Origin: a virus
Taxonomy: Duplodnaviria; Caudoviricetes
DNA length: 64,000 bases
Reading direction: 5' to 3' (one strand)
Virus record (IMG/VR): IMGVR_UViG_3300001598_000037
Span: 1 to 64,000 of that record
The position numbers were made by a program, and so were the translations under genes. A model generated the notes under the pieces. The model saw only the letters and a list, made by a program, of their open reading frames with translations. It made no database searches and was not told where the DNA came from. Positions 6,866-40,752 of this stretch are shown piece by piece; position 1 is the first letter of the stretch; the number at the start of each line of letters is the position of its first letter.

Positions 6866-9800
6866 ATGGCTAATGTAATTACTTTAAATTTCAAAGATAA
6901 CACAAATCTTAAAAAAGAAATTAATAAACTTGATGATTTCACAGATGAAATGAAAAAGAGTTTGATCAATTATTTGACTCAAGCTAATGAAGCAATAGTA
7001 GATAAACAAATTGCTTCAGAAAAAACAGTTGAACAAACTATTAGTTATCTTAATAAAGTTATGGGACAATTTAATAAAGAAGTGTCTATGTTTACTAAAA
7101 AAACAGCCCACGGCACAAATTTATATTTAGGTCTACATGAAAAAGGCACTCAAATTGATCCAAGCAAGATTGCAAAAGAAATGACTATGAAATTAGGAGT
7201 CATTGAAAAGGGTGTAGAACAAACATATAAAGGTCTACAACATGACTTGCTCGTAATGACACAAGACGGCGTTATGGGTGCTCAACAAGCTATATTAGAA
7301 ACTATAGGCGGTATGGTAGAAACAATTGATATTGAATCAAAAGAATGGGCAAGCAATTTAAAAGCTGCTCTTACAAAAGGTACTGCTGGTTTTCAAACTT
7401 TACAAAGACGTGCAAAAAAAGAAGTTGAAGCGCAACCTCAATTTATTTCGAAGAGCGATCAAAGTGATTTCAATCGTCAAATGCAAATGGTTGATAATCA
7501 AATAAAAAATGCGATTAATGGAACTAAAACTATAAATATGACTAAATACTTCCATGAAATGATGTATCGTGGTGGTCAAGGTACACAATTTGCTGGTCTT
7601 AGTAAAATAATGAATAAATATCGTCAATTAGACAAAGTTTATAAAATGCAAGGGGCAGGTTTTGATAAATTCAGAGAAGATGCTGCCATGTTAATTTCTC
7701 TAAAACAAGCAGGTTATACTAATAAAGAGTTAGTAGGTAAAAATGGTTTTGAATTATTTAAGGACTGGACCGAAAAAGATCTTAAAAACTTTTTCGATTT
7801 ACAACAAATTGCCAAAGTAATTAAATTACCTGGTAATATTAATAATACATCTCAAAGCTCGTTAAAACATGGACAAATTAGTATTGGAGGAGCTGAACAA
7901 ACTTTTGGTGGTTTAGGCAAAAATTTCTCAAGAAAATTTATGCAAAATTTACAAGAAGCCAAGAATATAGTCGCTCCTACACATGGTATTAAAAAGCGTT
8001 TCGGAACTCAAAATGAAAATTATGATGCTCATGATTATGGAACTTTAACTTCTGACGAAAAAGCAATGTCAGGATTTTTAAGGACATTAGAAGCTGATTT
8101 ACGCAAACAATTAGAATCAGGTTCTGATGCAAATTTTAAGAAGATGTCCGCTGCTCGTCAAAATGAATTAATTAGAAAGAAAATTGTTCAACAATATGGT
8201 GATGTATATAATGCGTTTAGAGAAGGTAAAGTATTTGTCGCAAAAGATCTCCAAGAAGATTTAATTAAAGAAGAAAAAGGATCTATAAGTGTTAGCGGAG
8301 ATAAATGGAAAGCAGAATTAGAAAAACAACTTAAACTTTCTTTAAAAGATAGTAAATATAAGAGTTTAAATTTAAAGAAAGGTACTACTTTTGATTCTAT
8401 TGTATCAGGTGCACAATATAAAGAATTAAGAGAAGAAGTTATGAAAAATGCGCTAGGAGTATTAGATCCTAGAGTTTTAGCTCATAAAAATAGTTTAAAA
8501 ATTAATCCTGCAAATATTATTACAAATGGTATTATGAAGGATATTCAATGGTCTTACAGTGAAGCATTACATAATGGAAGCAAATTAATTGCGCCTGGAC
8601 AAGATGAGCGTGTTACTACCACTCTTGTGGATCGCAAATTTATTGAAAAATTTGCTGAATATGTTTTAGGTAAAGATTACGCAAAATTTAATAAAAATCA
8701 TAAAGTAGACGTATTAAAAGGCCGAGAACATGAAATGGGTTATAAGACTATGGCCAGTGATATTACTGGTATTACAAAGTCTTTAATTCAAGAACGTGTG
8801 GCCGAAGGATCATCGGCTGGTCAAACAGAAGAACAAGTTATTACACAAATTAATAAAGAATTAAATAAATTTTTAAAAGATAACGGATACGGTTCTGTCA
8901 AAGCTGAAAATGGTAAAATATTAGATAATACAGCTGTTTTAGAAACTATTAATAAAATTAAAGATGAGTCTTTACGTATTCAAAAAACTGAAGAATTTTT
9001 AATGGGCTGGTTTAATACTCTAAAAGCGGGTACAGCCGAACATTTTATACAACAAGTAGTTGACAGCGAAGGAAATATTAAATATAAAAAAGACAGTAAA
9101 GGAAATTTTATATTAGATAGTAATAATAATAAAATTCCAGAAATTCGTTCAGGTATTAAATTTAATACTCCTGCTTTTGGTTATAATTCATATGCATTAC
9201 ATAATGCGAGAAGTTATGATGACGTCTTTATTAAAGCACAAAGAAACGGTCAAGGTTGGGGTATTGGTGGTTATAGAGGACGTCAATCTTTAGGACTAAG
9301 TACAGGAATTGCTCGTTCAATTGCTGGCAGTGAAAGAGATTTAGAAAGAATTAAATCATTAGAAATGGTCCTAGACTCTATGTATAGTAATACAACTATG
9401 AGTTCGGAGCAATATGACGACTTAAAAAAAATGGCTCAAAAAATTAATCCACTTAATCAACCAGACCGTTCGAAAATTGGTCAAAATAACATCATTGACC
9501 TTAAAGAACTATATGGTATGAAAGAAATGGAAGAATTAGGGGAAGAAGATTACGTCGGAGGTAAAATTACTCAAGAGGCTTTCTCAAAAACTATTGAAGG
9601 TAAAATTGGTAAAATCATTAATGAACGAAATATCACAGGAGATGTATATGTTCAAACTCCTAATGGCGATTTAATTTATGTACCATCATCTGATAGCCAA
9701 GAGTTGGGCAAAATCGCTGGCGGCACGTCAAAAAAACGTCTTGAACAACTTACAGATGGAGATAAAGTTCAAACTGTAGTTAGTTCAGATATTATGATGC

Positions 9801-11638
9801 AAGGATCTGGCTTTGGTTCTTATATTAATAGTTTACTTAATACATATTTTGATGACGAAGGCAATAGGAAGCAAATCACAGAAAAAACACATGAGTTTGT
9901 ACAAAATGCTCAAGAGACTTACTACAATACAGTTAATACATCCTTCCAAAAAGGTGGAATGATTTATGATGCTGCTTCTCATAGCGCGAGTACGTCAGCT
10001 ACGTATGGAAAATCTGAAAGTTTTAATACACATGAAGTGGAACAATTATATCAAGAATATAAAGACGCAACTGATCCTGAAGACAAGGCATTGTTAAAAC
10101 AAAAAATTTTACAAGCTACAGGCGGTATTACATTATCAAAAGATAATTTAGCAAAAATGCTAACAACTGCACCTGAATTAGATGGTGAAGATAAGAAGAA
10201 ATGGAAAGAAGTTAATAATGCTCGCTTACTTGGAATGTACAAGGCGTTAAGAGATAAATATCAACAAAATTCGGCCTACACATTCGAAGGTGATGAAAAA
10301 ATTGGCAAATGGGATAGCAAAAAGTTGGCCTCTGAAATTGCTAGTATCGTAGACACAGAACGAGAGGGATATAACGGGGAAAGTTTAGCCTCTATTGTTG
10401 GCCGTTATCCATTTTCACATGGTGAAGACTTAAAATTTGCAGGTTTAAGAGTTGCAGGAAATTCTGATGTTGTTAAAATCGGAACAGGATTAGCTAAAGA
10501 AATAAATGCGGACTTCGATGGTGACTCTATTCTTTCAATGTTATTAGGTTTTAATATTAAAGATTTTAGAGAAAAAACAAAAGAACAAATTGCACAAATT
10601 TTCCAAGAAGCTACAACTGCATCTTATAAAATTCAAGAAGTGCATGAAAAAAGAGCTCAAGTAGCTGCGGCTGCTCAAGCTATGGCACAAAAAAAAGATG
10701 AAGAAGAATGGGCTGCTGCTGGATTAACCCTTGATGAACAAAAAGCCCTTAAAGTTGCAGCCGCTGGACAAAGAACCGCTATTGAAGCAGGTATTGCTGA
10801 AAGATTTGGTAAAGAGAAAGTTGGACAATTTTCTAATATTTATCAAAATTTACACAATGGTCTAGTAGGCATGAAAATCAGTTCTGAAGGAAATTTACAA
10901 GGTAAAGACAGTGAAGATGCAATGGCTGCATTGGCAGTGAGCTCGATTTTTGAAGCTGTTACGCAAGAAGCAATTTCATCTAAAAAAATATTAGAGGGTG
11001 GAGTCGAAGGCAAGTTCTTCAAGAATTATATGAATAATATAATGAAACTAACATCCATGTTTGATCCTACTAAAGAAGGAGATTTCCAACAAAAAGATTT
11101 CTTCAAAATTTTAGATGATTTAGGTATTAATGCGGGTTTTAAAAAAGGAGAAGGCTCTTCATTTTTCGCATCAAGAATTGGTACACAAATTGCTACAGAA
11201 ATGTTGCAGTTTGGTAATCGAGCAGAGGCACAAGAAAATTTATGGAATTTAATATCAAGTTCTGGTTATAATGGAACTAAAGACGATTTTCTAAAGATTC
11301 TTCCTCAATTTGATGAAAACGGCGTATTAAATACTGCCGAATATGAAAAAAATAAAGATGCGTTTGAGAACCTATTTACAAAAGATGTTTTATCTGGTAT
11401 GTTTACAAAGTTAAACACTAGTTTAACAGGTAAAAATTGGCAAGATACATGGAATAGAGTTTTCACAGCTGGACAGAATGGTATATTTGACATAGCTACT
11501 CATAAAGCCGATAGACCTGGTACAGAAAAGATGATCGATGTTGACGCTGCTATGGAAGCCCAAATGCAAGGCATGGGAGCTTTCGTTGGTAGTTTAATTG
11601 AGGCAACATCAGCATTAAAAGAATTTACTGGTGCCCTA
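6866..11638 (+). other. Putative virion RNA polymerase region of the tape measure polyprotein
   Basis: RYPFSH (nt 10403-10420) and NADFDGD (nt 10505-10525), spaced like NRxPxLH...NADFDGD of beta-prime; downstream VGQFSN and QEAISSKK resemble the motif order of single-chain two-barrel polymerases. Confidence 0.75.
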
Positions 11639-14600
11639 GGCGGCTCTGGAGGCGGCGGAGGCGGAGGAGGTATCTTCCGTAGTCCATTTGATGTGGCTAA
11701 GCAATTGGGTGAAAATGAAAAAGGATTAATTAATTCATTTAATTCTTGGTCAGCATCTAAAATTACAAATGCTTTAAATCCAACAAATTATGACAATCAA
11801 CAATATCTAGATAAACAAATCAAAGATATTATTGAGGGAAAAGCTAAATATAAAAATGACTTCTTTGGCTATGGTAGCGCTGAAGAATTACAACAAGCAG
11901 TCGGCGGACATTATCTAGCTGCAGATGCTGGTCACGTTTCAGAAGACGTTGCCAACGTATTTATGCAACTAAAGAAAATGGGCTTAGACGGTAAGTATAA
12001 GAGTTTTGATGCAGTATATAATGATGTTCAAAGAGGTGCTTTTAAAGGAGTTAAAGGTGTTTCAACGCTTAAAGGTTTAACAGAAACAGCTTATAGAACT
12101 ATTTATGGCGGTAAAGTTGGTAAAGATCGCGTAATCGGATATAAAGAAAAAGAAGAATTATTACAACAAGCATTGGGCGATTTATATGGTGACTCAACTT
12201 TAGCAAAACAAATAGAAACAGGTATTGGCCAAAGCGACATGTTATCAACCTTATTAAATTTCAGAGGATATGATAAAACTAGTAGCGGCACTGAAACTAT
12301 TTCAGCAGGTTTTTTAGGAAATCAAGGCACTATTACTAGAGCCGACTATTCTACTTTATTAAAAACCGATGCGTTCGGTAATAAGAAAGACACTTTCGCA
12401 TTCTTTGATTTTAAAAATAAAGATAAAAAAGCTGTCGGTGTTAGTGACGTTATTCAAGGTGTTTTAAACTATAATAACCTTGAAACTATGAGACAACTTG
12501 CTCATCAATATGAAAATTTTGAAGATTTTAAAGATTTAGATATCTATAAAAATTTACAATCTTCTTGGGAATATTTTAACCCAGGCGAAAAATTTGATGG
12601 TGCAAATTATTTTAAGAGTTTAAAGAAAGCCGATAAGGTTGAAGGTTACGTAGCTCAAGGTAATAAATTACATAAATTAAATATTGACCAAACTAGCCTT
12701 TCTCGTTATATGAAGATCGTTGATAATTTAATGAATGGCAACGGCACTTTAGATGATTATCGAGATGAAATTGGTCGTTTATATAGTAATATCCCTCTTC
12801 CAGGAACAGTAGATTTACCTGGAAATGAGTATATGGGAAAAGGTATTGGATTGGCCAAGGATTATTTAAATGTTCAAGACAAAATTGATGCATTAAATGA
12901 TCGTAAAGGACAAATTGAAGGCAATTCTGAAGCTGAGGAAAAATATAAAAAAGTACTAGAGGAAGAAATTGCATTACTTCAACAACGTAAGAATTTAATT
13001 GAAGAAGCTATTAAAGCTGACGATAGTAAAGCTGGTATTGATAAAGATATTCAAGACGAATATCAAAAACGTGCAGACAAAGAAGCTGAACGACAAGCGA
13101 AATTAGATGAAGAAGCCAGAAAAGAGGCTGAAAAAGAGCAAAAACAAAAACAATTGCAATTTAATCAAAATCTTAAAGGTTATGATGCATTACTTAAAGA
13201 AAAAGCTAAATTAGATGCTGAATTATATAAAGTTGAACACCAAGGCGGTAATCTAAAAAATCCGCAAGCTACTCAAGATTATATTAAGGAATTAAAGAAT
13301 CAACAACAATCTAAAGAAGCTGAAATTCAAACTTATCTTGCTGAACATGATATGAGTCTTAATCCAGAAGAAGTTGATAAAATTAAAGAAGAGGTAGATA
13401 ATGCTGCTCATTTAAAACAATTAAAAACTGATACTGGTATTAAAGTTAATGAATATTATGGTTTTTTGAGCGATAAACAATTAGTTAGTGCTAGTGGAAA
13501 TGTTCGCGCACAATTGGCCGAAAAAGAAGATCAATTAAAGAGTAGTTCGGTAGTTACGGCAACCTTAACAGAAGCCGAGCAGTTAGAAGCCGAGATATTT
13601 AAAAATGATCTTAAAGAGGAAATTGCTCTTTTAGAAAGAAAGAAAGAGTTAATTGACGATGCGATTGCGGCTATTGATGATCCAAAGAGAAGAGAAGCAA
13701 TCAATGGTGAAGCCGCGATGAAAGAACGAGCTAAACAAGCTCGTTTAGAAGAAGATCATCTAAAAGAATATCAATCATTAATAAAAACACGTACTGTTAC
13801 TAATAAACAGTTTATGGATGCGGCATATAATACAACCTTTGCTAAAGATCCAAAACAACAACAATATTTTGCTCAAAATCAAGCAGAATTAAAAAAACAA
13901 TTAGAAGAGCAAGATCGAATCATTAAACAATTTGAGGAAACTCATGGTTATGATAATAATGATAAGGCGAAGAAAATTCGTGACGATGCAGCCGCTAAAA
14001 GCCAAATTGAGCAAAATAATATTATGGCCCGTGCTGTGCAAGCCGAAAAACAACAAGGCGTTCGTGGATTTATTGGTAGTTTCGGTTCGAATTTCGCAAA
14101 ATCTGCTAAGCAATTCTTAATGTATCAAACTTCATTTAATGCGTTGTTCCAAAAATTAAGACAAGGTCTTAAAACTGTTGAAACACAAGTTAAATCAATG
14201 AATAAATCATTAGTGGATTTACAAATTGTTACAGGTAATACTAAAGAAGAAACAATGAGTTTACTTACATCTTATAGTAAATTAGGTAAACAACTTGGTG
14301 CAACTACTACGGAAGTTGCTAATGCTGCTAACTCTTGGTTAAGACAAGGTTATGAAGCTGCTGATGTTACAGAACTAGTTACATCTTCTTTATATCTAAG
14401 TAAATTGGGTATGATCGACTCTGCTCAAGCTACACAAAATTTAACATCAATGTTAAAAGGTTTTAAACTTGAGGCTAGCGATGCAATTAGTGTTGTAGAT
14501 AAATTAGTTAGTGTTGATATGAAAGCAGCTGCCAGTGCAGGTGGTATTGCTGAAGCATTAAGTCAATTTGCTACAACTGCACAATTATCTGGTTTAGATA

Positions 14601-17600
14601 TGGACAAAGCTATTGCGATGGCGACAACTATTATGGACGTATCACAAGCAGCTCCTTCAAGTGCAGGTAATGCATTAAAAACCATTCTTTCTAGATTTGG
14701 TAATGTTAAAGCTGGTGCTTTTGAAGATATGGGCGAAGGAGAAGACGGCACATCAATAAACGATGTTGAAAGAGTTATTAAAACTTTGGGTATTTCACTC
14801 AAAGATAGTAAGGGCGATCTTCGTGATTTTAGTGATGTGTTGGAAGATATCGCTGAAAAATGGGCAAGTATTGATGAAATTAGTAAAAATGCGTTGGCAA
14901 CAGCTTTTGCTGGTACAAGACAACGTGAATCATTCCTTGTTTTAATGGAAAATATGGATAAATACCATGAATTAATTGAAGTATCGGCTAATTCAGAAGG
15001 TACTGCAATTAAAAAATATAATGCTTATTCTGATAATTTAGAAGCATCTCAAAAGAGAGTTGCGGCAGCATGGGAAGAATTAGGTAATAATGTTAATTTA
15101 CAAAATTTAATGATTAAAATTAATGAAATTATCGAAAAACTGGTAGATATTCTTCCTTCATTAATTAAATGGACTGAGAGAATTGCCTCTTTACGTATCG
15201 GTGCTGGACTCGGCCGTATTCTTGGTACAGGGCTTACTACTGGTCTCGCAGGAGCTGGTAGTCGTTTATCTGGTTTAGGAGTAGTAGGCGGCATTAAAAC
15301 CGTGGCGTCCGACGTTACTTATGGCGGAGTTTCATTACTGGGAAAAGGTCTTAAAGGCATAGGTGGCTTACAAGGTTATAAAATGAATCAATCACAAACA
15401 GTGATTCAAACATTAATATCTAAAGTTACTACCTTACAGCGTGCCATTGAAACGAATACACGTGCTGTTTTAGGAAATACACAAGCCGAACAGCAAGATA
15501 ATCAAAATGGAACAGGTGGATCAACACCAATATTTAATAGTGGTGGATATGTAGCGGCGCAAAATTTAATTAATACTCAAGGAACAACAATTAATGGCAC
15601 TCAAGTATTACAACATACTTATAAAAATAAAACATATCAAATGGACCCTAAAACAGGGAAAATGTATAAAGTTCTTAAGAACGGACAATTATCAAAATGG
15701 GCGGCTCCGTCTAGAGTGACCAAAGATATGGTACAAAAAGATTCTACTGGTACTTATCAAAATTATTTTAATCAAATGAGATTAGATCAAGGTAAGACTT
15801 TAAATAAACAACAAATAAACAATATTAATAGTCAGATTGCTTCTAATAATAAAACCCTTCAAGGTTGGACGAAAAACGACAAAGGTCAATGGATATCAAA
15901 GAAAACAGGAAAAGTAGCGAATAAGAGTTGGACTACACGCTTAAATAATGCCCAAGCTAGTAATGAACAATTACAAGCACAACAACAACAAAGTGAGGCT
16001 AATAAAGCACAAAAAGGTAGTGCGGCTGCTGGAGTTATGATTCAGATGGGCGCAGCGATGGCAATGGGAGGACTTATGGGCTCTCAAAATTATGCTAAAT
16101 CTTCGACTATTACTGATTCGACTGGCCAAGAAATTCAAGCGGCTATGACAAAAGAAGAAGAAGCGACAAGTAGAAAATGGAGTACTGTATCAGGTATTGC
16201 TTCTGGTATTCCAATTTTCGGTCCAGCTTTTTCACATTTATATGATTTAAGTGTAAAAAACAATTGGGGTAACAAATATGGCGTCAGTCGAGGCTTAGCT
16301 CGATCAGAACAAGAAGCAGCCAATAGTAAAAAGACATTGAATGCTATTACAGGAAATCTTGATAAATTTGCCAAAGCTGCAAGTTCGGGCGATTTAGATA
16401 GCGGTAAAAAAGAATTAGATGATATGATCTCGACTTTATATAAACGAGATGAAGAAGGTCGTGATGTAAATAAAACAGGAAGAGAACAGTATGAAAAATA
16501 TTTAAAAAATATTTTAGGTGATAAGTTCGGTTCTAATTTATTAGAAATTACTAAAAATGTTGAAGGTGATGTCGCCGCACAACGCGAATTATCTCAAGCA
16601 ATGTTAATTGCCCAAGAACAGGCAAATAGAGAAAATTTTATTGCTTCAAATGCAAAAGAAAACAATCAACGCGGAAAAGCGGCTGACGAAGCTTGGTTAA
16701 AATATAAAGACAGTGATTATCAAGAAAAAGTTAAGGCGGCTGGTAATAAGGCTGGATGGGAAACTGGCGCTACGGTTGGTGTAGCATCTGCCGCCGCCGT
16801 TATTGGTGTCGGAGCTGCTATTGCAGGCGGCTTGTCTAGTATTCCTGTTGCTGGTTGGATTGCGGCTGGTGCAACTATGGTTGTAACGGGCGTTACTGCT
16901 GGTATTGTGGCAGCCAAGGAAGCAGAGTTAAAGAAACAAGCTGAATTAGAAGCTGCAAATGCCGAACGTGGTAAAACATATGAAGATAAAATAAATGAAG
17001 TTGAAGCGGCCATTGATTTAGCTCGTACTGAAGGTGATACTGCTGCAATTTCTGAACTTCAAGAAATCAAAGATACATTACAACAAATTCAAATTGAACA
17101 AGAGCAATATTACAAGGAATTAGACGAATCATATGCAAAAGAAGCTGTTCTAGGTATGAAGAGTGCTGACGGTACTTTCTTAGCCAACTTCTCAGAAGCT
17201 CAACTAAAACAAAATATTGGTAAAAATGGTATTGAACAAGCATTTGGAGAATATTTAGAATCTATTGGTGGTTTATATAATTCTGATGTATTTAGTACCG
17301 ATGGATCATTGTCTGAATATGCTCAATCATTATTAAAAACTGCCATTAAAGAAAATTCCACATTAAATGCTGTGTATACTGGAAATGCATATACATTATC
17401 AGAAGCTTTACAAAAGAATGATACAGATTTATTACAAAATTTTGCCACTGCTTTAGGAGTTTCGGTTGATGCATTGAGTAATATGGAGGATCAATTTGGA
17501 CGTATTGAACTCGGCGATTTCATGTCGACGATTGATGATTTGAATACTAAGATGAGTAAATTAACTGAAAATATTACTTTCTTAACTGATTCAACTAAAT

Positions 17601-19642
17601 CTCAATATGAAAAAGAAATGATGATTATTAATCAGTATCCTGAATTAATCAATTTAATGGGAGATACTCCAGCCTTATTGTCAGAATTTTGGAAAGATCT
17701 AGGTCAATTAGCAAATGTTCAAGCTGAAAAATTAATCCAAGAAATTTATGATCAAGAAGAATATTATACAAAGACTTTATTACCAGAACTTCAAAAGAAT
17801 GAGCAATTTAGCGCCAAATTTAACACAGTTGGTGATGAATTAAGTTCTGTAACTTCAATTACTGGATTAATGAAATATTTAGCGCGCAATGGTGATTCAG
17901 ATTTTTCATCGACTATTCAAGAACTAGTTGCTGGGCAATTAGAAAATGTGGATGCGGTAGTGGATGTATATCGTGAGTTATTTGATCAAATGGATGAATA
18001 TAAAGTTCATCTATTAGATGAACAGTTAGAAAACTTAAATAGCCAAAAAGAAGCTTTAGAGCAAATTACTGCTCAACGTGAATACGAAAATAAATTATTG
18101 GAAGCTCGTAATAAGTTAGAAACAGCTTTAAATGAGAAAAAACGTGTTTGGCGAGAAGGTGTTGGCTGGGTTTATGAGGCTGATCAAGAAGCAATTGCCG
18201 CAGCAGAAGAAGAACTCGATAGTCTTAGTACAGAAAAACAAATTTCTAATTTGGAAGAAACCATTAAAGAGATCGAGGCTGAAAAACAACGTATTTCAGA
18301 TCGCAAAGATGCTGAAAAATGGAAACAACAACAAGAATTGTTTGAATCTTATTTTGGTAAAGGTGAGGGTTCTGTCAACTCATATATTCAAGCGGTTCAA
18401 ACTGCTGTTGAAGGAATTCAAATTGATGTTGGAGGCACGACAGGTGCAATTAATGAAGATATTGAAAACAAAGAGCTTGCGCGTCAAGAGGCCTTATATG
18501 GCGCTGGTGGATCTAAAGATAATGTAAAAGGTGGTTTAGCTGCTGCTAAATCGAAGTTAGTTGAATTGTCAGCTCAATTAGAAGGCAAAGATAAACTACA
18601 AATTACCAATGAACAAAGATCGGCATATAATGATGCATTAGAAGAATATAGTAATTTAAGAACTCAAGCTCTATCCAACGGTTATATTTCATCGGATGAT
18701 TTAGATTACATGTCAACGACTTCTATGGGTGGCACAGTCACTGATAATCTTTATAATGGTGGTTCAAAAGTTAAGGGACAAGATGTCTTCCTTACAAACG
18801 ACCGTAATGACGGTAGTGGCGCTTATAAGAAATATATGGTTGGTGATATGACAGCGGCCGACTCTCAAGAAGCTAAGTGGGTATATGGCGATATGACAGA
18901 AAAGAAAAAATGGGCTCATGGTTTCTTACCAGATGGCACAGTTATTTATTTCTGGAATGGTATGGCCTATAGTAAACCTGGTGCTAAAGATATGAAAGCT
19001 AAAGAAAGATTAAAATATGAATTAACTCAATATTCAGTTGGCGATGCAACCGATTTATCAAGTTATGCGTCTAAAGTAAAAAATATTCTTTTAATTGGCG
19101 CTCATGGTGATCAAGAAGCTGTTGTTATTAAAGATGGTAATTTATTTACTGCGTCCGTTAATGATATGAGCGAGGAGGAAAAGAAACTACTTGCTGGCAA
19201 AGGTGGAGGTTATTATTTAGATGGATCTGGTACAAGATCTGGCGCATGGGGCGAAAAAGGAGCTATTGTTGGCGCCAATGCTTTGGGTACGCTAAACTTT
19301 GCTGGTGGACCATCTCTAATTAATGAATTAGGAACGGAAGCTATTATTACACCTCATGGAACTATTACTTCTCTACCTTCTGCAACAGGTATTGTTCCTG
19401 CTGATATTACCAAGAACTTATGGCAATTAGGAGAATTAGCTCCTGCTATTGCTCAAGGTCTTATGATGCCTGGATTCGGTTTCAATTCAACATTTGGAAC
19501 TCCAGCTAATCAATCTGCTGTTGATGAATCATTTAATATTACAAATCTTACAATGAATGTTTCAGCTGATGATTCATTTGATGCCGATGCTTTCGTTAGA
19601 GCAATCCGCACAAAAGCTGATCTAAGCCGTAATAGTCGTTAA
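6866..19642 (+). CDS. Giant tail tape measure protein fused to an N-terminal two-barrel RNA polymerase and a putative nuclease domain (4258 aa)
   Basis: AAGGAGG SD; NADFDGD at residues 1214-1220; TP901-type tape measure core at about residues 2410-2740; hydrophobic Gly/Ala segments; C-terminal ANALGTLNFAGGPSLINELGTEAIITP motif typical of tape measure C-termini. Confidence 0.85.
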   Translation: MANVITLNFKDNTNLKKEINKLDDFTDEMKKSLINYLTQANEAIVDKQIASEKTVEQTISYLNKVMGQFNKEVSMFTKKTAHGTNLYLGLHEKGTQIDPSKIAKEMTMKLGVIEKGVEQTYKGLQHDLLVMTQDGVMGAQQAILETIGGMVETIDIESKEWASNLKAALTKGTAGFQTLQRRAKKEVEAQPQFISKSDQSDFNRQMQMVDNQIKNAINGTKTINMTKYFHEMMYRGGQGTQFAGLSKIMNKYRQLDKVYKMQGAGFDKFREDAAMLISLKQAGYTNKELVGKNGFELFKDWTEKDLKNFFDLQQIAKVIKLPGNINNTSQSSLKHGQISIGGAEQTFGGLGKNFSRKFMQNLQEAKNIVAPTHGIKKRFGTQNENYDAHDYGTLTSDEKAMSGFLRTLEADLRKQLESGSDANFKKMSAARQNELIRKKIVQQYGDVYNAFREGKVFVAKDLQEDLIKEEKGSISVSGDKWKAELEKQLKLSLKDSKYKSLNLKKGTTFDSIVSGAQYKELREEVMKNALGVLDPRVLAHKNSLKINPANIITNGIMKDIQWSYSEALHNGSKLIAPGQDERVTTTLVDRKFIEKFAEYVLGKDYAKFNKNHKVDVLKGREHEMGYKTMASDITGITKSLIQERVAEGSSAGQTEEQVITQINKELNKFLKDNGYGSVKAENGKILDNTAVLETINKIKDESLRIQKTEEFLMGWFNTLKAGTAEHFIQQVVDSEGNIKYKKDSKGNFILDSNNNKIPEIRSGIKFNTPAFGYNSYALHNARSYDDVFIKAQRNGQGWGIGGYRGRQSLGLSTGIARSIAGSERDLERIKSLEMVLDSMYSNTTMSSEQYDDLKKMAQKINPLNQPDRSKIGQNNIIDLKELYGMKEMEELGEEDYVGGKITQEAFSKTIEGKIGKIINERNITGDVYVQTPNGDLIYVPSSDSQELGKIAGGTSKKRLEQLTDGDKVQTVVSSDIMMQGSGFGSYINSLLNTYFDDEGNRKQITEKTHEFVQNAQETYYNTVNTSFQKGGMIYDAASHSASTSATYGKSESFNTHEVEQLYQEYKDATDPEDKALLKQKILQATGGITLSKDNLAKMLTTAPELDGEDKKKWKEVNNARLLGMYKALRDKYQQNSAYTFEGDEKIGKWDSKKLASEIASIVDTEREGYNGESLASIVGRYPFSHGEDLKFAGLRVAGNSDVVKIGTGLAKEINADFDGDSILSMLLGFNIKDFREKTKEQIAQIFQEATTASYKIQEVHEKRAQVAAAAQAMAQKKDEEEWAAAGLTLDEQKALKVAAAGQRTAIEAGIAERFGKEKVGQFSNIYQNLHNGLVGMKISSEGNLQGKDSEDAMAALAVSSIFEAVTQEAISSKKILEGGVEGKFFKNYMNNIMKLTSMFDPTKEGDFQQKDFFKILDDLGINAGFKKGEGSSFFASRIGTQIATEMLQFGNRAEAQENLWNLISSSGYNGTKDDFLKILPQFDENGVLNTAEYEKNKDAFENLFTKDVLSGMFTKLNTSLTGKNWQDTWNRVFTAGQNGIFDIATHKADRPGTEKMIDVDAAMEAQMQGMGAFVGSLIEATSALKEFTGALGGSGGGGGGGGIFRSPFDVAKQLGENEKGLINSFNSWSASKITNALNPTNYDNQQYLDKQIKDIIEGKAKYKNDFFGYGSAEELQQAVGGHYLAADAGHVSEDVANVFMQLKKMGLDGKYKSFDAVYNDVQRGAFKGVKGVSTLKGLTETAYRTIYGGKVGKDRVIGYKEKEELLQQALGDLYGDSTLAKQIETGIGQSDMLSTLLNFRGYDKTSSGTETISAGFLGNQGTITRADYSTLLKTDAFGNKKDTFAFFDFKNKDKKAVGVSDVIQGVLNYNNLETMRQLAHQYENFEDFKDLDIYKNLQSSWEYFNPGEKFDGANYFKSLKKADKVEGYVAQGNKLHKLNIDQTSLSRYMKIVDNLMNGNGTLDDYRDEIGRLYSNIPLPGTVDLPGNEYMGKGIGLAKDYLNVQDKIDALNDRKGQIEGNSEAEEKYKKVLEEEIALLQQRKNLIEEAIKADDSKAGIDKDIQDEYQKRADKEAERQAKLDEEARKEAEKEQKQKQLQFNQNLKGYDALLKEKAKLDAELYKVEHQGGNLKNPQATQDYIKELKNQQQSKEAEIQTYLAEHDMSLNPEEVDKIKEEVDNAAHLKQLKTDTGIKVNEYYGFLSDKQLVSASGNVRAQLAEKEDQLKSSSVVTATLTEAEQLEAEIFKNDLKEEIALLERKKELIDDAIAAIDDPKRREAINGEAAMKERAKQARLEEDHLKEYQSLIKTRTVTNKQFMDAAYNTTFAKDPKQQQYFAQNQAELKKQLEEQDRIIKQFEETHGYDNNDKAKKIRDDAAAKSQIEQNNIMARAVQAEKQQGVRGFIGSFGSNFAKSAKQFLMYQTSFNALFQKLRQGLKTVETQVKSMNKSLVDLQIVTGNTKEETMSLLTSYSKLGKQLGATTTEVANAANSWLRQGYEAADVTELVTSSLYLSKLGMIDSAQATQNLTSMLKGFKLEASDAISVVDKLVSVDMKAAASAGGIAEALSQFATTAQLSGLDMDKAIAMATTIMDVSQAAPSSAGNALKTILSRFGNVKAGAFEDMGEGEDGTSINDVERVIKTLGISLKDSKGDLRDFSDVLEDIAEKWASIDEISKNALATAFAGTRQRESFLVLMENMDKYHELIEVSANSEGTAIKKYNAYSDNLEASQKRVAAAWEELGNNVNLQNLMIKINEIIEKLVDILPSLIKWTERIASLRIGAGLGRILGTGLTTGLAGAGSRLSGLGVVGGIKTVASDVTYGGVSLLGKGLKGIGGLQGYKMNQSQTVIQTLISKVTTLQRAIETNTRAVLGNTQAEQQDNQNGTGGSTPIFNSGGYVAAQNLINTQGTTINGTQVLQHTYKNKTYQMDPKTGKMYKVLKNGQLSKWAAPSRVTKDMVQKDSTGTYQNYFNQMRLDQGKTLNKQQINNINSQIASNNKTLQGWTKNDKGQWISKKTGKVANKSWTTRLNNAQASNEQLQAQQQQSEANKAQKGSAAAGVMIQMGAAMAMGGLMGSQNYAKSSTITDSTGQEIQAAMTKEEEATSRKWSTVSGIASGIPIFGPAFSHLYDLSVKNNWGNKYGVSRGLARSEQEAANSKKTLNAITGNLDKFAKAASSGDLDSGKKELDDMISTLYKRDEEGRDVNKTGREQYEKYLKNILGDKFGSNLLEITKNVEGDVAAQRELSQAMLIAQEQANRENFIASNAKENNQRGKAADEAWLKYKDSDYQEKVKAAGNKAGWETGATVGVASAAAVIGVGAAIAGGLSSIPVAGWIAAGATMVVTGVTAGIVAAKEAELKKQAELEAANAERGKTYEDKINEVEAAIDLARTEGDTAAISELQEIKDTLQQIQIEQEQYYKELDESYAKEAVLGMKSADGTFLANFSEAQLKQNIGKNGIEQAFGEYLESIGGLYNSDVFSTDGSLSEYAQSLLKTAIKENSTLNAVYTGNAYTLSEALQKNDTDLLQNFATALGVSVDALSNMEDQFGRIELGDFMSTIDDLNTKMSKLTENITFLTDSTKSQYEKEMMIINQYPELINLMGDTPALLSEFWKDLGQLANVQAEKLIQEIYDQEEYYTKTLLPELQKNEQFSAKFNTVGDELSSVTSITGLMKYLARNGDSDFSSTIQELVAGQLENVDAVVDVYRELFDQMDEYKVHLLDEQLENLNSQKEALEQITAQREYENKLLEARNKLETALNEKKRVWREGVGWVYEADQEAIAAAEEELDSLSTEKQISNLEETIKEIEAEKQRISDRKDAEKWKQQQELFESYFGKGEGSVNSYIQAVQTAVEGIQIDVGGTTGAINEDIENKELARQEALYGAGGSKDNVKGGLAAAKSKLVELSAQLEGKDKLQITNEQRSAYNDALEEYSNLRTQALSNGYISSDDLDYMSTTSMGGTVTDNLYNGGSKVKGQDVFLTNDRNDGSGAYKKYMVGDMTAADSQEAKWVYGDMTEKKKWAHGFLPDGTVIYFWNGMAYSKPGAKDMKAKERLKYELTQYSVGDATDLSSYASKVKNILLIGAHGDQEAVVIKDGNLFTASVNDMSEEEKKLLAGKGGGYYLDGSGTRSGAWGEKGAIVGANALGTLNFAGGPSLINELGTEAIITPHGTITSLPSATGIVPADITKNLWQLGELAPAIAQGLMMPGFGFNSTFGTPANQSAVDESFNITNLTMNVSADDSFDADAFVRAIRTKADLSRNSR
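11740..12480 (+). other. Putative PD-(D/E)XK (RecB/Cas4-like) nuclease domain inside the tape measure polyprotein
   Basis: SWSASKI...AGHVSE...E1810...RAD(1827)...DFK(1848-1850)...Q1864-Y1869, following a poly-Gly linker at 11639-11671. Confidence 0.5.
14100..15100 (+). other. Tape measure core domain (TP901/PhageMin_Tail-like)
   Basis: MNKSLVDLQIVTG...YSKLGKQLGATTTEVANAANSWLRQG...AGNALKTILSRF...ALATAFAGTRQRESFLVLM. Confidence 0.85.
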
Positions 19643-23785: not shown

Positions 23786-26700
23786 ATGGCAGTATACAAA
23801 GCAACATACTGTTATCCGTTTTTAAATACGTTTGATCCCAGAGTTGTGGCAACGAAAACCAATAAGTTTCCTGCTCAATATTTGAAGTGTAAAGTAGATA
23901 CTTCAAATAAAACCGTTACAGGGTATCAAATTATTATACGCGATAACGAAAATAATATTGTCTTTCCAGTAGACAAAGATCAAAATAACTGGAAAATTAG
24001 TCCAATTCAAGAATTGGAACAAAATCTAGACTTAAATGGATATACAAATAGCGGTATTAATGGGTCTTATCTTAATATTGCTTTTATTCAAAATTTATAT
24101 CAAAATAATATTTTTAATCCGCATGTAAATGGTCGAATTTATAGATCTTATAATGCAGTATATTTTAAAGGCGCTTATATGGCTCAATATATTATTTCTG
24201 ATTCCACCGCTGACTCTGATCCAGCGGGAGATATATCGAATTGGACTTATATGGCTGACCCAGGTGGGGACCCTCGTAAAGATAGTTTAACTTGTAATAT
24301 ATCAAATTGGAATAATATTTTGAATGGAGAACTTGTCTCTGAAGGGGATATTATCTTTGTGAAGGTTAATGATGCCGATAAAGGTGGTCTTTGGTCTGTT
24401 TACAGTAAGACTTCTCTTAGACGATATAGAGATTATGATGGCAATTTTATTAATAATAGTGTAGTGACAAATACTGCTGTGAAACCTAAAATTTGTATTA
24501 CACAAGGAAAGGCTCCCAGAGAAAACAACAAACATTATTATTATTATTATGATGGCTCGCAGTTTATAAGATTTATTAATCAACAATCTAATGCGGCAGA
24601 TAAGCAGTTATGGGTATGTCAAAAAGACACGGGTATCGATCATACTTATATGGTGGATTTAACAATTCAAGGCGGATCCTATAAATGGGAAATAATTCTT
24701 TATCAAGGGGTAGGAGAAGTTTATGACATAAACGGTAATAGAGCTGATGTAAATCAGCTTGATACAGCTAATAATGTATATTATATTACCTATAAAAATA
24801 TGTCTTATGAATATTATGACATGACATTAACTAGTGGCCAAATTTTAGGTTCCACATTAACTAGATTTCAATTAGCAAATAAACCTACAGCAGAACTAAT
24901 TAATCAGGATAATGAAATAGTTGGTGTATTACCTGGTGAAAATTCTTCGACGCCATTGGTTTTATTAAATAAATATGCCCAATTATTAGGAGATAACGGT
25001 CAATCATCCCTATCCAACAGAGTGGTAGTAAATGCTTTCGACGCAACTTATGGACATGTTTATTTTAAAGAAGGCGCGATTACTCAAGATATTTTTGATA
25101 AAACTGCGAAGGTAGAATTTTATAAATACTCAAATGTGATTGAAGATATCCTCGAAGGTGATATAGTTGATGTGGCTACGGTGGATACTGTTACTATTGG
25201 GTCCAGTTATAAAATTGTAAAATCTATGTTTGGTAGTCAAATTGACGGCATCACTCTTACTCAAGGTATGAAAGTTTTAATTAAAAACGCGAGTGATCCT
25301 CGATTTAATGGAGTATATATAGCCGAAACTGGTGAAGTCGACGGCCAAGAAGTCGCATGGAGCCGAGCAGGTTCGTATAATACATGGGGATCATTTATTG
25401 GTAAAATTTTATGTGTTCGTCAAGGTAATCAAAATCGTGGAAAGAATTTTCAATCGCAAGCGAAAGCTGGTGGAACATTATTAATACCAGACGGCACGGA
25501 TCAAGGCGGGGCTGGATCTTATCTATATTTTAATGCGGAACAACCTATTATTTTATTTGATACACTTCCAGATATCAATATTTATCAAGCTGACTTATTT
25601 ACCACAGGTGCCTTTACTACTGTTGTGGACGGCTATAATGTGGCCACTGGCGATCGTGTAGTCGCTCAAGAAGATGGTCAATACAAAATTAAAACTCGCA
25701 CCACAACTGGTTGGTCAACTGACCCAATTATTTTAACAAATAATGATTATATTAAAATTGCGCTAGGTCAAACATATGGCAACAAGGTTATTAAGGCAGG
25801 ATCGCTTACATCAGATTTAACATCTGCTTATATCTTAAAAAATAGTAATTTATATACCTTTGTTAGTCCATTTATCGGTATGACTAAAAATAATGCATTG
25901 TTCTTTTATAATAAAAATAAAATCGATTATAATACATCTGCAGCAGATCATCCAGAGACACCATCTTATTGGTTAAAACTTCAAGATGTTTATGAAAAAT
26001 TTTGGTTAATTAAACATTATAAACTCAACAAGGTATTAGATAGTATAGACCCTTATAAATATGAATTAAGATCGTTTTTTAAAGCCAGCGATGAAAATCC
26101 TTTCTTTACATACGAAGATCCATATTTAAAATTAACCCCAAATAACAGTTTTACTATTAGTGCTACATCAGGTGTTTTTGAAATACAAACTAATGGTAGA
26201 TTTATTACATTACAAGGCGAATATTATCAACCTCAACAAGCGTCTTGGTCGACATATAGATGGGTGTTAAAAGATCAGGATGATAATATTGTCCAAGATA
26301 CAGGTAAGAAATATGATAAAGATCTATTAACTACTTTTTATGGTTTAAATAACGAAGAAGGTAAAAATATTTATTTTGCTACTTTATATGTTGAAGACAG
26401 CCTAAATAATTCATTAAGTTTAACAATCAAAATTAATGTTGATACAACAACCGCTGAGATTGGAGTGCCATTTGTGGCCGAATATGATTGTGATACTCAA
26501 TCTGTAATATTATTTTACGATGATGTTCCGTTCGTAAAGCCAACGGTCACAGGACCTATTTATTCAGAAGTTTATATTGCGGAACACCAGTCGGATATTG
26601 AGGCCAAAACAAGTGCAAAATGGGATAATTCTATCATTTATTCAAACAACTCACTCAATATTAAGGGGAATAATGCAAGTTTTGGTGCTGAATGGGGTGA

Positions 26701-28231
26701 TAATAATCTATCAGAATATACAGAACTCGAGTCATCGTTGATATTGAGATCTGCTAATGCACAAGAAACATATAAAGATGAATCCTATTCAGTTAATAAT
26801 GGTGTACAATATAAACATTTCTTTTCTGAAGATGGTCTAGAGGTTGAAAATGATCAAAATTTGTTAAAATTATATTCTACGGATCCTGAAGGTATTTCAC
26901 AAACTGATGAATTTACTTTTAAAACAGATTTGGTTTTGGATAATAATTACTGTGGACAGATTTTACGATTAGAAATGGATGGTACTGAACCTGGCGCTGG
27001 TGAACAACAAAACAAAGTTATATTTACTTTAACGATTCCAAATAATTTTATCAACACAGACCGCACCGTGTTGAATCCTTATAGAAATCAAATACAATTT
27101 GATATTTTAACGAAAATTTCCGAGGATACCAATCAAGAAGATAGCAAATTTAATATTAGTCAATATTTACTAAAAAAACAACAGGCTTCTCCTCAACAAT
27201 TAAGTGATTTAATTCAAGGGCGTGCTTATCATATTCATGTGCCAGCACATACTACTGGAGTATTTACGTCAAGCTCGATCGGAATGTCTAAGCTGGTTAT
27301 GAGTGAGTGTTCAAACATTGTGACAGATATTCAACCAACAGATCGTGGTAGTTCAGGTGAAACGACCACAGGGTTTGGATGTTCCAACGGCGCACCTATT
27401 TGTTATGGTTTTACTGACTGTACTGATACATTACATCAAAAATGTTATAATTTGGATGATGCTTATTATGATTTTGATGCCGATATTGTATATTATGATT
27501 ATCATGGATCTTCAGAGCAGGTGGAAAAACTATTACCATTTATCACGAGTGACGAATTAGTAGATGCTCCAGTAAAAACTTTTGATCTTGATAATAACCC
27601 ATATTTTTATTTACAATTTGAAGATTCTCCATATCAAGAGGGGGAATATTTACATTATCAATATTTAGATAATAATAATTCTAAAAAGATTAAAATTTAT
27701 TTTTTAAAAAATAATAATAACAAATATGAGCCATATGGCATTAACCATGAATATTCTAGTAGTTGTTTAGTGCATGCAGCTGCTAGTAACTCGGCGTTGA
27801 ATTATTGGGTTGATAATAAAACCTATTCATCATCTTCCGATAAGATGTTAAATATATTTACAGGAGTTTATGATGGTTCAAGTCCAAGTTGGCCTTCAAC
27901 AGATAGTGAAGAACAAGATTTATATTGGAAAGAAAATTCTTCTTTTAATAGTAATATTGTGGGAGACGAAAGTCAAATTAATTATTCTAACTTTGATGCA
28001 CAATATTCCGATTGCGGTTTTATTAAGTTAATTAGTTATAAACGTCATCCAGAGTGGGATCAAAGACATTATAAAATAGAATTAATAGCGAAAGATATAG
28101 CTGCTCTTTATACAGAAACAGATTTAACAGTTGAAGCTGGAAATAATACAGCGGATGGATATTATATTACTCATGTTAAAAAAGATGACGTAATTTTATT
28201 TACAATTCGAATTAAAAATATTATAGATTAG
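23786..28231 (+). CDS. Large baseplate/tail fibre protein (1481 aa)
   Basis: VDVAT...IDGITLTQGMKVLIKNASDPRFNGVY...WSRA motif typical of fibre/baseplate proteins; beta-rich Ig/Fn3-like stretches; tail context. Confidence 0.65.
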   Translation: MAVYKATYCYPFLNTFDPRVVATKTNKFPAQYLKCKVDTSNKTVTGYQIIIRDNENNIVFPVDKDQNNWKISPIQELEQNLDLNGYTNSGINGSYLNIAFIQNLYQNNIFNPHVNGRIYRSYNAVYFKGAYMAQYIISDSTADSDPAGDISNWTYMADPGGDPRKDSLTCNISNWNNILNGELVSEGDIIFVKVNDADKGGLWSVYSKTSLRRYRDYDGNFINNSVVTNTAVKPKICITQGKAPRENNKHYYYYYDGSQFIRFINQQSNAADKQLWVCQKDTGIDHTYMVDLTIQGGSYKWEIILYQGVGEVYDINGNRADVNQLDTANNVYYITYKNMSYEYYDMTLTSGQILGSTLTRFQLANKPTAELINQDNEIVGVLPGENSSTPLVLLNKYAQLLGDNGQSSLSNRVVVNAFDATYGHVYFKEGAITQDIFDKTAKVEFYKYSNVIEDILEGDIVDVATVDTVTIGSSYKIVKSMFGSQIDGITLTQGMKVLIKNASDPRFNGVYIAETGEVDGQEVAWSRAGSYNTWGSFIGKILCVRQGNQNRGKNFQSQAKAGGTLLIPDGTDQGGAGSYLYFNAEQPIILFDTLPDINIYQADLFTTGAFTTVVDGYNVATGDRVVAQEDGQYKIKTRTTTGWSTDPIILTNNDYIKIALGQTYGNKVIKAGSLTSDLTSAYILKNSNLYTFVSPFIGMTKNNALFFYNKNKIDYNTSAADHPETPSYWLKLQDVYEKFWLIKHYKLNKVLDSIDPYKYELRSFFKASDENPFFTYEDPYLKLTPNNSFTISATSGVFEIQTNGRFITLQGEYYQPQQASWSTYRWVLKDQDDNIVQDTGKKYDKDLLTTFYGLNNEEGKNIYFATLYVEDSLNNSLSLTIKINVDTTTAEIGVPFVAEYDCDTQSVILFYDDVPFVKPTVTGPIYSEVYIAEHQSDIEAKTSAKWDNSIIYSNNSLNIKGNNASFGAEWGDNNLSEYTELESSLILRSANAQETYKDESYSVNNGVQYKHFFSEDGLEVENDQNLLKLYSTDPEGISQTDEFTFKTDLVLDNNYCGQILRLEMDGTEPGAGEQQNKVIFTLTIPNNFINTDRTVLNPYRNQIQFDILTKISEDTNQEDSKFNISQYLLKKQQASPQQLSDLIQGRAYHIHVPAHTTGVFTSSSIGMSKLVMSECSNIVTDIQPTDRGSSGETTTGFGCSNGAPICYGFTDCTDTLHQKCYNLDDAYYDFDADIVYYDYHGSSEQVEKLLPFITSDELVDAPVKTFDLDNNPYFYLQFEDSPYQEGEYLHYQYLDNNNSKKIKIYFLKNNNNKYEPYGINHEYSSSCLVHAAASNSALNYWVDNKTYSSSSDKMLNIFTGVYDGSSPSWPSTDSEEQDLYWKENSSFNSNIVGDESQINYSNFDAQYSDCGFIKLISYKRHPEWDQRHYKIELIAKDIAALYTETDLTVEAGNNTADGYYITHVKKDDVILFTIRIKNIID

Positions 28232-36622: not shown

Positions 36623-37621
36623 ATGGCAACAGGTAAAGTTACAAAATTTTCATACTCAAGGCTTAATACCTATCACAATTGTCCTTTTCATTATTGGTTA
36701 AAGTATGATCAAAGACATTATGTTTACTCGGACAGCTTAGCTGCTGAAATGGGAACTTTGATCCACCATATTGAAGAAACAATTGCGTTAAATATTATTT
36801 CTGGTTTTAGTCCTGATTATGAAGCATTAAAGAAAGAATTTAGAAGCATTAACATTCCTAAGTCTTCTCCAACAGATACTGAAGGTGGTATCTTTGGAAT
36901 CGATATACTTAAGAAAAAATATGCTGATGAGTTCTTTGAAATGAATGATAAAGGTGAATCTTATTTCACAAAAGCTCAAGAATATTTAAACTCAGGAATT
37001 TATCGTCTTGAAAATTATTTAAAAGAAAATCCAAAATTACGTTTAGTTGATGTTGAAAAAGGATTTGAAGTAGAGTATAATGGTGTTGTATTCTTTGGAT
37101 TTATTGACCGTATTTTACAAAATACCGAAACAGGTGAGTATATTATTGAAGATATTAAAACCAAAGATCATCCATTTAAAGATTCTGAATTAGCTACTCC
37201 ACTTCAATTTGTGATCTACTCTATGGCGCTTAAAAAAGCTTATGATTTAGATTACTATCCTTCAACTTGTTATTATGATCTACCTGTTTGTGGTGTTCGT
37301 CAAAAAGCGGGCACTCGTGGATTTGTAGAAAAAGGCCTAAAAGAAATTGGAACTATGCTTAATAATATCCAAAGTAAAGTTTGGGATCCAAAGCCAACTC
37401 CATTATGTCATTGGTGTGAATTCTGTCCTACTAATCCTAAACAAACTGAAGAAGGCAAAAATTTATGCTGTTATTATTCAATGTGGACACGTGAAAATCA
37501 AAAACATGATGTCGCTATGCCTTGGAAAGGTATTGATCAACATGATAAGATCATGGCAAAATTTCTTCAAGATACTAGCAGCCCAGAGGCTGTATATAAA
37601 GTATTTGATTTCGATTTTTAG
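36623..37621 (+). CDS. PD-(D/E)XK nuclease, Cas4/AddB-like with probable 4Fe-4S cysteines
   Basis: FSYSRLNTYHNCP, GTLIH, GFIDRI, IEDIKT, QFVIY, CHWCEFCP...LCC. Confidence 0.85.
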   Translation: MATGKVTKFSYSRLNTYHNCPFHYWLKYDQRHYVYSDSLAAEMGTLIHHIEETIALNIISGFSPDYEALKKEFRSINIPKSSPTDTEGGIFGIDILKKKYADEFFEMNDKGESYFTKAQEYLNSGIYRLENYLKENPKLRLVDVEKGFEVEYNGVVFFGFIDRILQNTETGEYIIEDIKTKDHPFKDSELATPLQFVIYSMALKKAYDLDYYPSTCYYDLPVCGVRQKAGTRGFVEKGLKEIGTMLNNIQSKVWDPKPTPLCHWCEFCPTNPKQTEEGKNLCCYYSMWTRENQKHDVAMPWKGIDQHDKIMAKFLQDTSSPEAVYKVFDFDF

Positions 37622-39483: not shown

Positions 39484-40752
39484 ATGAGTAAACTTAATTA
39501 TGGCATTAACGATAAACCTAAAAAATGGTATGAGTGGGTAGTGTTCAGTTTACAGCAATTATTGTCTGTATTTGTCGCTACCGTACTTATTGCCAATATT
39601 TGTGGAACCCCAGTAAGTTCCTGTTTGCTAGGAGCATGTTTAGGAACTTTAATATATCAAATTATTACAAAATTTAAGTCACCAATGTTTATTTCCAGCT
39701 GTGGTGCAACAGTCTCAGCTGTATGTGGAGCCTTGAGCTTAAATGCAGCTGGAAACAATTACTTAATGGTCTTCTGTGGTGGGCTGATTATTCTAGCTAT
39801 TTATGGATTATTTGCATTAATTACCCACTTTACAGGAACTAATTGGATCAACAAGATTTTTCCGCCAATTGTAATTGGGCCAGTAACTATGGTTATTGGA
39901 TTAAACTTGGCAACCTTTATTTTTAGTTATGTCGGAGGAACTGATAATTATGTTCCTTGGTTACAGGTGCTTGTGGCAATCATTACAATGATGATCGTAG
40001 CGATAACCTCACATTATGGTCACAAATTTTTAAAACAAATACCATTCTTAATTGGATTAACTGGTGGATATCTAGTTGCATTATGTTTTGGTTTAGTTGA
40101 CTTTTCTGCGTTTAGTCAAATGCAGTGGTACCCTGATTTAACTTTCTTAAAATGGTCTGCGAGCGATTTTTCATGGATTAATTTAGGAAAGACTGTATTA
40201 TATTTTGTTCCTGTCGGGATTTGTGCTTTGTTAGAACATATTTCTGATCATAAAACATTATCTAATATAATTGGGACAGATCTAATCACAGAGCCAGGGC
40301 TTGATAGAACTTTATTGGGCGACGGCGTAGCAAGTGCGGTCGGCACGGCTGTCTGCGGACTACCTAATACATCTTATGGAGAAAGTATTGCAACGACAGG
40401 TTTTAGCAGAGTAGCTTCGACATATATTATAACCGTAGCTGCTTGTGTATTAGGTTTAATGAGTTTCTGCGGACCAATTACTGCGTTTATTCAAACTATT
40501 CCATCATGTGTATTTGGTGGATGTGCAATGATTCTTTATGGATACATCAGCTTGTCTGGTTTAAACACTTTAAAGAATAGCGGATTAGACTTAACACATA
40601 ATAAAAATATGATTATTATTTCAGTTATTTTAACAACTGGAGTATCTGGTATTTATTTATTTGATGCAGCATTTAGCGGTGTTGCGTTAGCAATGATTTT
40701 AGGAGTTATTTTAAATATAGCTCTTAAAGATAAAAAATCAAAGGAGAATTGA
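39484..40752 (+). CDS. uraA: Uracil/xanthine permease (NCS2 family, UraA/PyrP-like)
   Basis: Multi-pass hydrophobic; SLQQLLSVF, EHISD, GDGVAS, signature PNTSYGESIATTGFSRVAS. Confidence 0.9.
   Translation: MSKLNYGINDKPKKWYEWVVFSLQQLLSVFVATVLIANICGTPVSSCLLGACLGTLIYQIITKFKSPMFISSCGATVSAVCGALSLNAAGNNYLMVFCGGLIILAIYGLFALITHFTGTNWINKIFPPIVIGPVTMVIGLNLATFIFSYVGGTDNYVPWLQVLVAIITMMIVAITSHYGHKFLKQIPFLIGLTGGYLVALCFGLVDFSAFSQMQWYPDLTFLKWSASDFSWINLGKTVLYFVPVGICALLEHISDHKTLSNIIGTDLITEPGLDRTLLGDGVASAVGTAVCGLPNTSYGESIATTGFSRVASTYIITVAACVLGLMSFCGPITAFIQTIPSCVFGGCAMILYGYISLSGLNTLKNSGLDLTHNKNMIIISVILTTGVSGIYLFDAAFSGVALAMILGVILNIALKDKKSKEN

Follow-up and report, generated by a model that had tools for sequence, protein, structure and literature searches.

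Tape measure proteins have traditionally been viewed as passive rulers and channel formers, and the locus described here raises the question of whether such a protein may also carry, besides a polymerase, a nuclease destined to enter the host together with the phage genome. The stretch analysed, referred to below as the window, comprises positions 1 to 64,000 of IMG/VR record IMGVR_UViG_3300001598_000037, a 90.8-kb virus contig (~66% complete) of an uncultured phage known from metagenome and distantly SPbeta-like, its DnaE being 36% identical to SPbeta YorL. A giant open reading frame (ORF) in the window encodes a tail tape measure protein, in which an earlier note, made from the letters alone, had proposed a PD-(D/E)XK nuclease as a second injected cargo domain following a glycine linker. 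Here we show by profile and pairwise comparison that an SPbeta-like lineage of gut phages carries a predicted PDDEXK_1-type exonuclease domain in the tape measure protein, at the position of the window segment. The segment itself, at amino acids (aa) ~1650-1990, is probably homologous to this embedded nuclease family in domain and fold, and the reading we favour is of a strongly diverged RecB/Cas4-like PD-(D/E)XK exonuclease module, which follows directly on an N-terminal module of a two-barrel RNA polymerase and precedes the coiled-coil and the tape-measure core.

The embedded family came to light through related contigs (n=80), which were collected with the family of a stand-alone nuclease encoded at 36623 of the window as bait and whose whole records were then searched. 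The polymerase-like region of the window protein matched a 3,701-aa ORF in one of them, G036, which contains the motif NGDYDGD, sub-threshold Pfam matches to LEF-9 and Rpb1 domain 2 at that motif, and a PF10145 core, and which at the equivalent position reads GTAAH ... GQIDA ... VVDYKN ... QVLTY. Searches with the G036 domain, and then with its alignment, located the same domain in the giant tape-measure ORFs of G010, G013, G011, G027, G047, G009, G035 and G032. It is a conserved domain of ~300 aa, found in nine contigs of SPbeta-like gut phages from IMG/VR and carried by about 10 of the 64 related genomes. Across seven embedded-domain sequences, which share 22-27% identity, the residues G-T-x-x-H, G-x-x-D-A, D-x-K and Q-x-x-x-Y are invariant, and since these are the RecB-type PD-(D/E)XK motifs, they establish what the relatives' domain is. 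The copies of G009, G035 and G032 pass PF12705 (PDDEXK_1) with 27.5, 40.7 and 41.3 bits against a gathering score of 22, relatives' copies match the phage exonuclease family phrog_69 (E 1.8e-11 and 1.2e-7), and weak matches to Cas4, AddB and RecB are found in NCBIfam; no nuclease came up when the family alignment was used for a profile search of PDB. The family alignment holds about 8 distinct rows. One version of it, A4, proved too heterogeneous to be used in pattern scans, and scans of IMG/VR, metagenomes and genomes with A5 and A6 yielded near-duplicates only.

The proteins that bear this domain resemble the window protein on both sides of it. Window aa 1172-1442 match aa 1015-1290 of the G035 and G032 tape measures, which bear the motif NADYDGD, at E 2e-11, with weaker matches to G010, G013 and G009, while the tape-measure cores match at E 1e-59 to 1e-92 (35-45% identity to the cores of G010, G013, G035, G032 and G036) and the C-termini at E 1e-20 to 1e-27. 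With the polymerase region and the tape-measure core matched on either flank, the relatives' proteins can be regarded as homologous to the window protein around the domain. The D[FY]DGD signature precedes DxK by 565-635 aa in all members (634 in the window, 635 in G035), and G009 has a linker, GGSSGGAGGSG, at the same junction between polymerase and nuclease. Inside or near the PF10145 core, the tape-measure genes of G035, G009 and G032 are divided by group I introns (54-84 bits to Rfam RF00028), so that each of these genes would encode one tape measure once spliced. A same-frame interruption of ~340 nucleotides (nt) was also noted at the same core in a further relative (L002:10253-10594), where no Rfam match reached the gathering score.

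How firmly the window copy itself can be tied to this family was assessed with aa 1603-2018 (416 aa) as the query or target segment. In hmmsearch it scored 10.8 bits against the profile of alignment A2 and 8.9 bits against that of A4; of 1000 shuffles that preserved composition, 2 and 1, respectively, did as well. It ranked first among 163 natural 416-aa windows drawn from this phage, L002 and the P23-45 tail region, the next unrelated ones scoring 2.8 and 5.0 bits. With filters off, the best place for the profile in all 4,258 aa was 1705-1882. When a six-member profile was compared by hhalign, FGNKKDTFAFFDFKN...VIQGVLNY...MRQL of the window came to lie in register with the family's block of DxK and QxxxY, at an E value of 0.0085 for the single comparison. 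The copy is 16-23% identical to the relatives' domains, and hmmalign posteriors are 9 or an asterisk at G1838, D1848, K1850 and Q1864. The protein as a whole is rich in Lys, Asp and Glu and contains 54 [DE]xK triplets; a single position in it, 1845, fits the pattern hhh[DE]hK. The proposal of a module flanked by the polymerase-like part and the tape-measure core finds its support in the same-position PDDEXK_1 domain of the relatives and in the aligned core, and the window copy taken by itself has neither a family match nor a predicted fold.

Motif by motif, the agreement is uneven. The strings on which the proposal had been built all lie in frame in the 4,258-aa ORF (SWSASKI at 1627, AGHVSE at 1688, ETISAGF at 1810, TRADY at 1824, FFDFKN at 1846 and IQGVLNY at 1863); the residue numbers given for E1810, D1827, D1848 and K1850 are right, as is the placing of GGSGGGGGGGG at aa 1592 (nt 11639). 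The domain had been taken to end at 12480, and the alignment to relatives carries it on to ~aa 1990 (nt 12835). At motif III, AFFD1848-F-K1850 falls over the invariant DxK with an asterisk posterior, so that D1848 and K1850 align as had been suggested. Downstream, Q1864 and Y1869 lie over the invariant Gln and Tyr (posteriors 9 and 6) at a spacing one residue longer (QGVLNY), the looser QxxxxY already remarked upon. At motif II, alignment A7 puts D1835/A1836 of KTDA over the family's invariant D-A, with a spacing of 13-14 residues that the short-hairpin copies G009 and G035 also show; E-INS-i and hmmalign land beside D1827 (posterior 3-4), and L-INS-i and G-INS-i align no Asp there. D1827, which had been singled out as a conserved acidic residue, therefore has in D1835 at least an equal candidate, and E1810 has no secure counterpart in the family. 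At motif I, the invariant GTxxH falls over G1737-LTET-AY, with T1741 in place of the His, according to A7, three MAFFT modes and the hidden Markov model alignment, the MAFFT comparisons using segments of 365 aa taken from around DxK; one other MAFFT run (A3) set G1689-H1690 over motif I with the wrong G-to-H spacing. The equivalences claimed for SWSASKI, AGHVSE, ETISAGF and TRADY are unsupported or ambiguous by alignment. A second candidate site, VEGYVAQGNKLHKLNID, from a BLAST fragment, aligned with the family's C-terminal hairpin and not with motif II, and was rejected. Coordinates are collected in Table 1.

Table 1. Positions of the tape-measure modules, the candidate nuclease motifs and comparators (window coordinates unless a contig is named)
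Feature	Position	Strand	Remarks
Giant tail tape measure protein	6866..19642	+	single uninterrupted ORF, 4,258 aa, zero Cys
NADFDGD, aa 1214-1220, metal-binding signature of two-barrel RNA polymerases	10505..10525	+	N-terminal polymerase-like module
GGSGGGGGGGG linker, aa 1592-1602	11639..11671	+	joins polymerase-like and nuclease-like modules
Diverged PD-(D/E)XK-like domain, aa ~1650-1990	11813..12835	+	probable; collinear with the relatives' tape-measure-embedded nuclease domain, alignment confident in the centre only
GLTETAY, aa 1737-1743	12074..12094	+	aligns with the relatives' invariant GTxxH; His replaced by T1741 in most alignments
TRADY with D1827, rival motif II candidate	12335-12349	+	neighbourhood indicated by E-INS-i and hmmalign
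KTDA, aa 1833-1836, candidate motif II	12362..12373	+	D1835 lies 13 residues upstream of D1848
Confidently aligned core, G1838-Y1869	12377..12472	+	strand TFAFFD, D1848-F-K1850 (nt 12407-12415), helix with Q1864 and Y1869 (QGVLNY)
Tape-measure core PF10145, aa 2472-2682	14279..14911	+	Pfam
Stand-alone PDDEXK_1 nuclease	36623..37621	+	85 bits; replication module, separate from the tape-measure feature
Group I introns in relatives	L112:10431-10699 and 10758-11096; L113:9859-10150; L114:10229-10588		Rfam RF00028

Several results weigh against the reading of the window segment as an exonuclease module. The profile match amounts to 9-11 bits with ~35 residues confidently aligned, hhalign assigns low probabilities of 4.7% and 0.4%, the invariant His of motif I is replaced in most alignments, the Asp of motif II is ambiguous between D1835 and D1827, and the Q..Y pair contains a one-residue insertion. 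In direct searches the segment behaves as an orphan: it has no Pfam match at E<=1 and none in PHROGs, NCBIfam or PDB sequences, an exhaustive phmmer search of 1.84 billion representative proteins returned the segment itself only, and the ESM Atlas gave no usable match. Nor was a match obtained by tblastn among 50,697 phage records, in a scan of IMG/VR or, at E<=1, in 41 long contigs of related phages, and a word-indexed search among long proteins found the segment alone. The copy has no close relatives that could be used for a test of purifying selection. Structure prediction is similarly unhelpful overall, since AlphaFold2 reached a mean predicted local distance difference test (pLDDT) of 37 from the single sequence and of 48, unreliable overall, with the 8-row alignment A7. 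The restriction-endonuclease-like fold (alpha-beta-beta-beta-alpha-beta core) expected under the proposal is consequently not predicted for the window copy, and Foldseek searches against PDB and VIA-wide retrieved no nuclease fold, returning helical-hairpin noise only; weak RecU and PA-N rows in the fold searches (E>1) were disregarded. The A7 model does contain a hairpin (1836-1840/1843-1848) ending at D1848 and a helix (1859-1881) with Q1864 and Y1869, both at pLDDT 60-80, and in this model the hairpin followed by a helix around DxK is the expected local topology. Finally, packaging and ejection of the N-terminal half of the protein, its arrival in the cytoplasm and its substrate there are proposed by analogy.

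The alternative that fares best, and to which we give about one chance in three, is that the nuclease module survives here as a relic without catalytic activity, serving only as a spacer or adaptor that lends length and flexibility between polymerase and ruler, or as a non-catalytic clamp on a DNA end. The replacement of the invariant His by Thr, the lack of conservation at F49 and R53, the ambiguity at motif II, the altered Q..Y spacing, the poor modelling of the N-terminal half of the domain and a divergence so great that database searches miss the segment would all be expected of a relic, although D1848-x-K1850, Q1864, Y1869 and G1838 are kept exactly and KTDA equals the family consensus K-T-D-A, spaced as in the short-hairpin copies G009 and G035. 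Many PD-(D/E)XK enzymes, moreover, function without the RecB-type His. The relatives' embedded domains have the same architecture and position and the same G, DxK and Q..Y as the window copy, and one of them shares the Gly-rich linker at the junction; they differ in that they keep every RecB-type motif and that three pass Pfam, whereas the window copy has apparently lost the His, is ambiguous at motif II and has one residue more between Q and Y. With the His apparently gone and motif II uncertain, catalysis in the window copy has perhaps been weakened or lost and its role perhaps reduced to binding of a DNA end. Judged on these sequence features, the chance that it is still an active nuclease falls at or a little short of even.

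In RecB/AddB/Cas4-type exonucleases (PF12705) the order of motifs is GxxxH, GxxD, hhhDxK and QxxxY, as in the embedded family, and the window copy has the DxK strand followed by the Q..Y helix. Unlike those enzymes, the window module has no iron-sulphur (Fe-S) cysteines and no helicase or recombinase partner in cis, and it lies inside a virion structural protein. The absence of Fe-S cysteines had been correctly noted: there is no Cys in the 4,258 aa, as against the four of Fe-S-bearing Cas4/AddB, and the same absence extends to the relatives' embedded domain family. Each of the 2,300-4,300-aa ORFs with polymerase and nuclease modules, that of the window among them, has 0-1 Cys, and one downstream exon ORF of G009 has 2. 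An embedded nuclease without an Fe-S cluster follows from tape measures that are giant and essentially free of Cys, and a near-absence of Cys suits proteins that have to travel unfolded.

The direct parallel drawn between the segment and the stand-alone gene at 36623 fared less well. That gene does encode a true PDDEXK_1 nuclease, from a family with four invariant Cys (C20, C262, C265 and C282), but BLASTP paired it with the segment over unrelated stretches only, at E 0.14, and when its family of 56 members was compared with the segment by hhalign the probability was 0.3%. The profile built from the tape-measure-embedded domains does align to the 36623 family, and motifs II, III and QxxxY then fall in register. 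One homolog of the 36623 nuclease (P0042) was found on a 145-kb contig labelled at NCBI as a Methanobrevibacter sp. metagenome-assembled genome, which may be a phage contig binned with the archaeon, or a hint of the host.

The identity of the protein as a tape measure is indicated by PF10145 (99.6 bits) and phrog_4211 (E 7.8e-51) within the same 4,258-aa ORF, and a precedent for its polymerase-like part exists. In Thermus phage P23-45, gp96 is a tape measure fused to a virion RNA polymerase, which transcribes the genes adjoining the first-entering genome end, probably while seated on the tape-measure pore (Chaban et al. 2024, PMC10770324). The window protein likewise unites a DxDGD signature and a PF10145 core within one ORF. 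Both proteins are giant and devoid of Cys (gp96, 5,002 aa, L116:8288-23296), with an N-terminal two-barrel polymerase module that bears DFDGD and lies upstream of the ruler and membrane parts. They show no sequence similarity beyond the DFDGD neighbourhood (BLASTP E 0.5, motif only), and window aa 1-1591 have no sequence match in PDB. Differences extend to cargo, since gp96 has an M23 peptidase, which Pfam does not find in the window protein, and has no PD-(D/E)XK domain by Pfam or the family profiles, nor is a nuclease mentioned in its description (PMC10770324). The virion RNA polymerase (vRNAP) of N4 and gp66 of crAss-like phages, discussed in the same paper, are alike in concept, a transcription enzyme delivered with the genome; unlike the window protein, they belong to podovirus-type virions and lie outside the tape measure. 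Of the three-part architecture proposed in the earlier note, the polymerase in a tape measure has been published (PMC10770324), and the added nuclease was found in no paper, full-text literature searches turning up no tape measure said to contain a PD-(D/E)XK domain.

By analogy with P23-45, the tape measure would exit the tail before the DNA, leaving the N-terminal enzymes where the entry channel opens into the cytoplasm, and on the same analogy delivery of the nuclease module with the tape measure seems likely. At the channel exit the module would meet whichever end of the linear phage DNA enters first, which it might hold or resect; resection could serve the annealing of terminal repeats through exposed single strands, the loading of the fused polymerase, or shielding from host exonucleases. 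Given that the nearest families are end-resecting exonucleases and that G010 has direct terminal repeats, holding or resection of the end would be the most economical role. The full scenario is a speculative one to which we lend a little less than one chance in three: a polymerase and a RecB-like exonuclease on one tail-ruler polypeptide would act jointly on the first-entering end, coupling resection to pre-early transcription or to circularisation via terminal repeats, with the window copy as an end-binding variant of reduced or altered catalysis.

Rather than its own genome end, the module might be aimed at host DNA or at the nucleic acid of a host defence, and so serve attack or anti-defence. 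Phages are known to inject enzymes against targets in the host, arrival with the tail would precede any phage gene expression, and the module is accessory, as its distribution among the related genomes indicates. We nevertheless consider this improbable, since a covalent tether to a membrane-channel protein and a polymerase would restrict its reach to DNA passing through the point of entry, the families closest to it are exonucleases of the recombination type (phrog_69, Cas4/AddB/RecB), and Pfam finds no targeting or regulatory domains nearby. Slightly less probable still is that the segment is unrelated to nucleases and shows chance motifs in a fast-evolving, lineage-specific linker or unknown tape-measure domain, as its lack of a direct database match and of a fold match, its non-significant BLAST and hhalign comparisons with the 36623 nuclease, hhalign probabilities below 5% and the abundance of [DE]xK triplets might suggest, for the segment is the profile maximum in the whole protein and among the natural windows, 998-999 of 1000 shuffles score lower, four invariant residues are matched in register, the distance from the polymerase motif is that of the homologous proteins and the strand-type hhh[DE]hK is unique in the protein.

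Should the exonuclease reading hold, DNA ends would be processed by a virion structural protein ahead of any phage gene expression. A second enzymatic module recurring in several gut-phage lineages would make the tail ruler a general carrier of "first-minute" enzymes, and would draw attention to how the incoming DNA end is handled, a step that is unstudied. The relatives, with their well-conserved copies, offer direct targets for expression and assay, while the eroded window copy illustrates how fast such cargo can diverge and why standard annotation overlooks it.

Some further observations concern the same proteins and their surroundings. A flexible Gly/Ser-rich linker at the junction of polymerase and nuclease occurs in two distant members, the window and G009 (aa ~1670-1686), and not in the others, and might act as a hinge or be where the protein is processed; in the window its codons are mixed GGN, with no homopolymer. 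The tape measure closest to that of the window by its core (61% identity), at L002:5657-10252 in G014, has an N-terminal half of ~1,430 aa that is unlike the window modules and has no Pfam match, and the N-terminal cargo region thus appears to be swapped between tape-measure lineages. Downstream of the tape measure in the window, a 1,481-aa ORF (23786-28231) without a Pfam match contains YYDFDADIVYY, which is DxDxD-like, and is probably a tail or fibre protein. Amid the phage replication genes, at 39484-40752, lies a full-length gene of the xanthine/uracil permease family (PF00860, E 2e-63).

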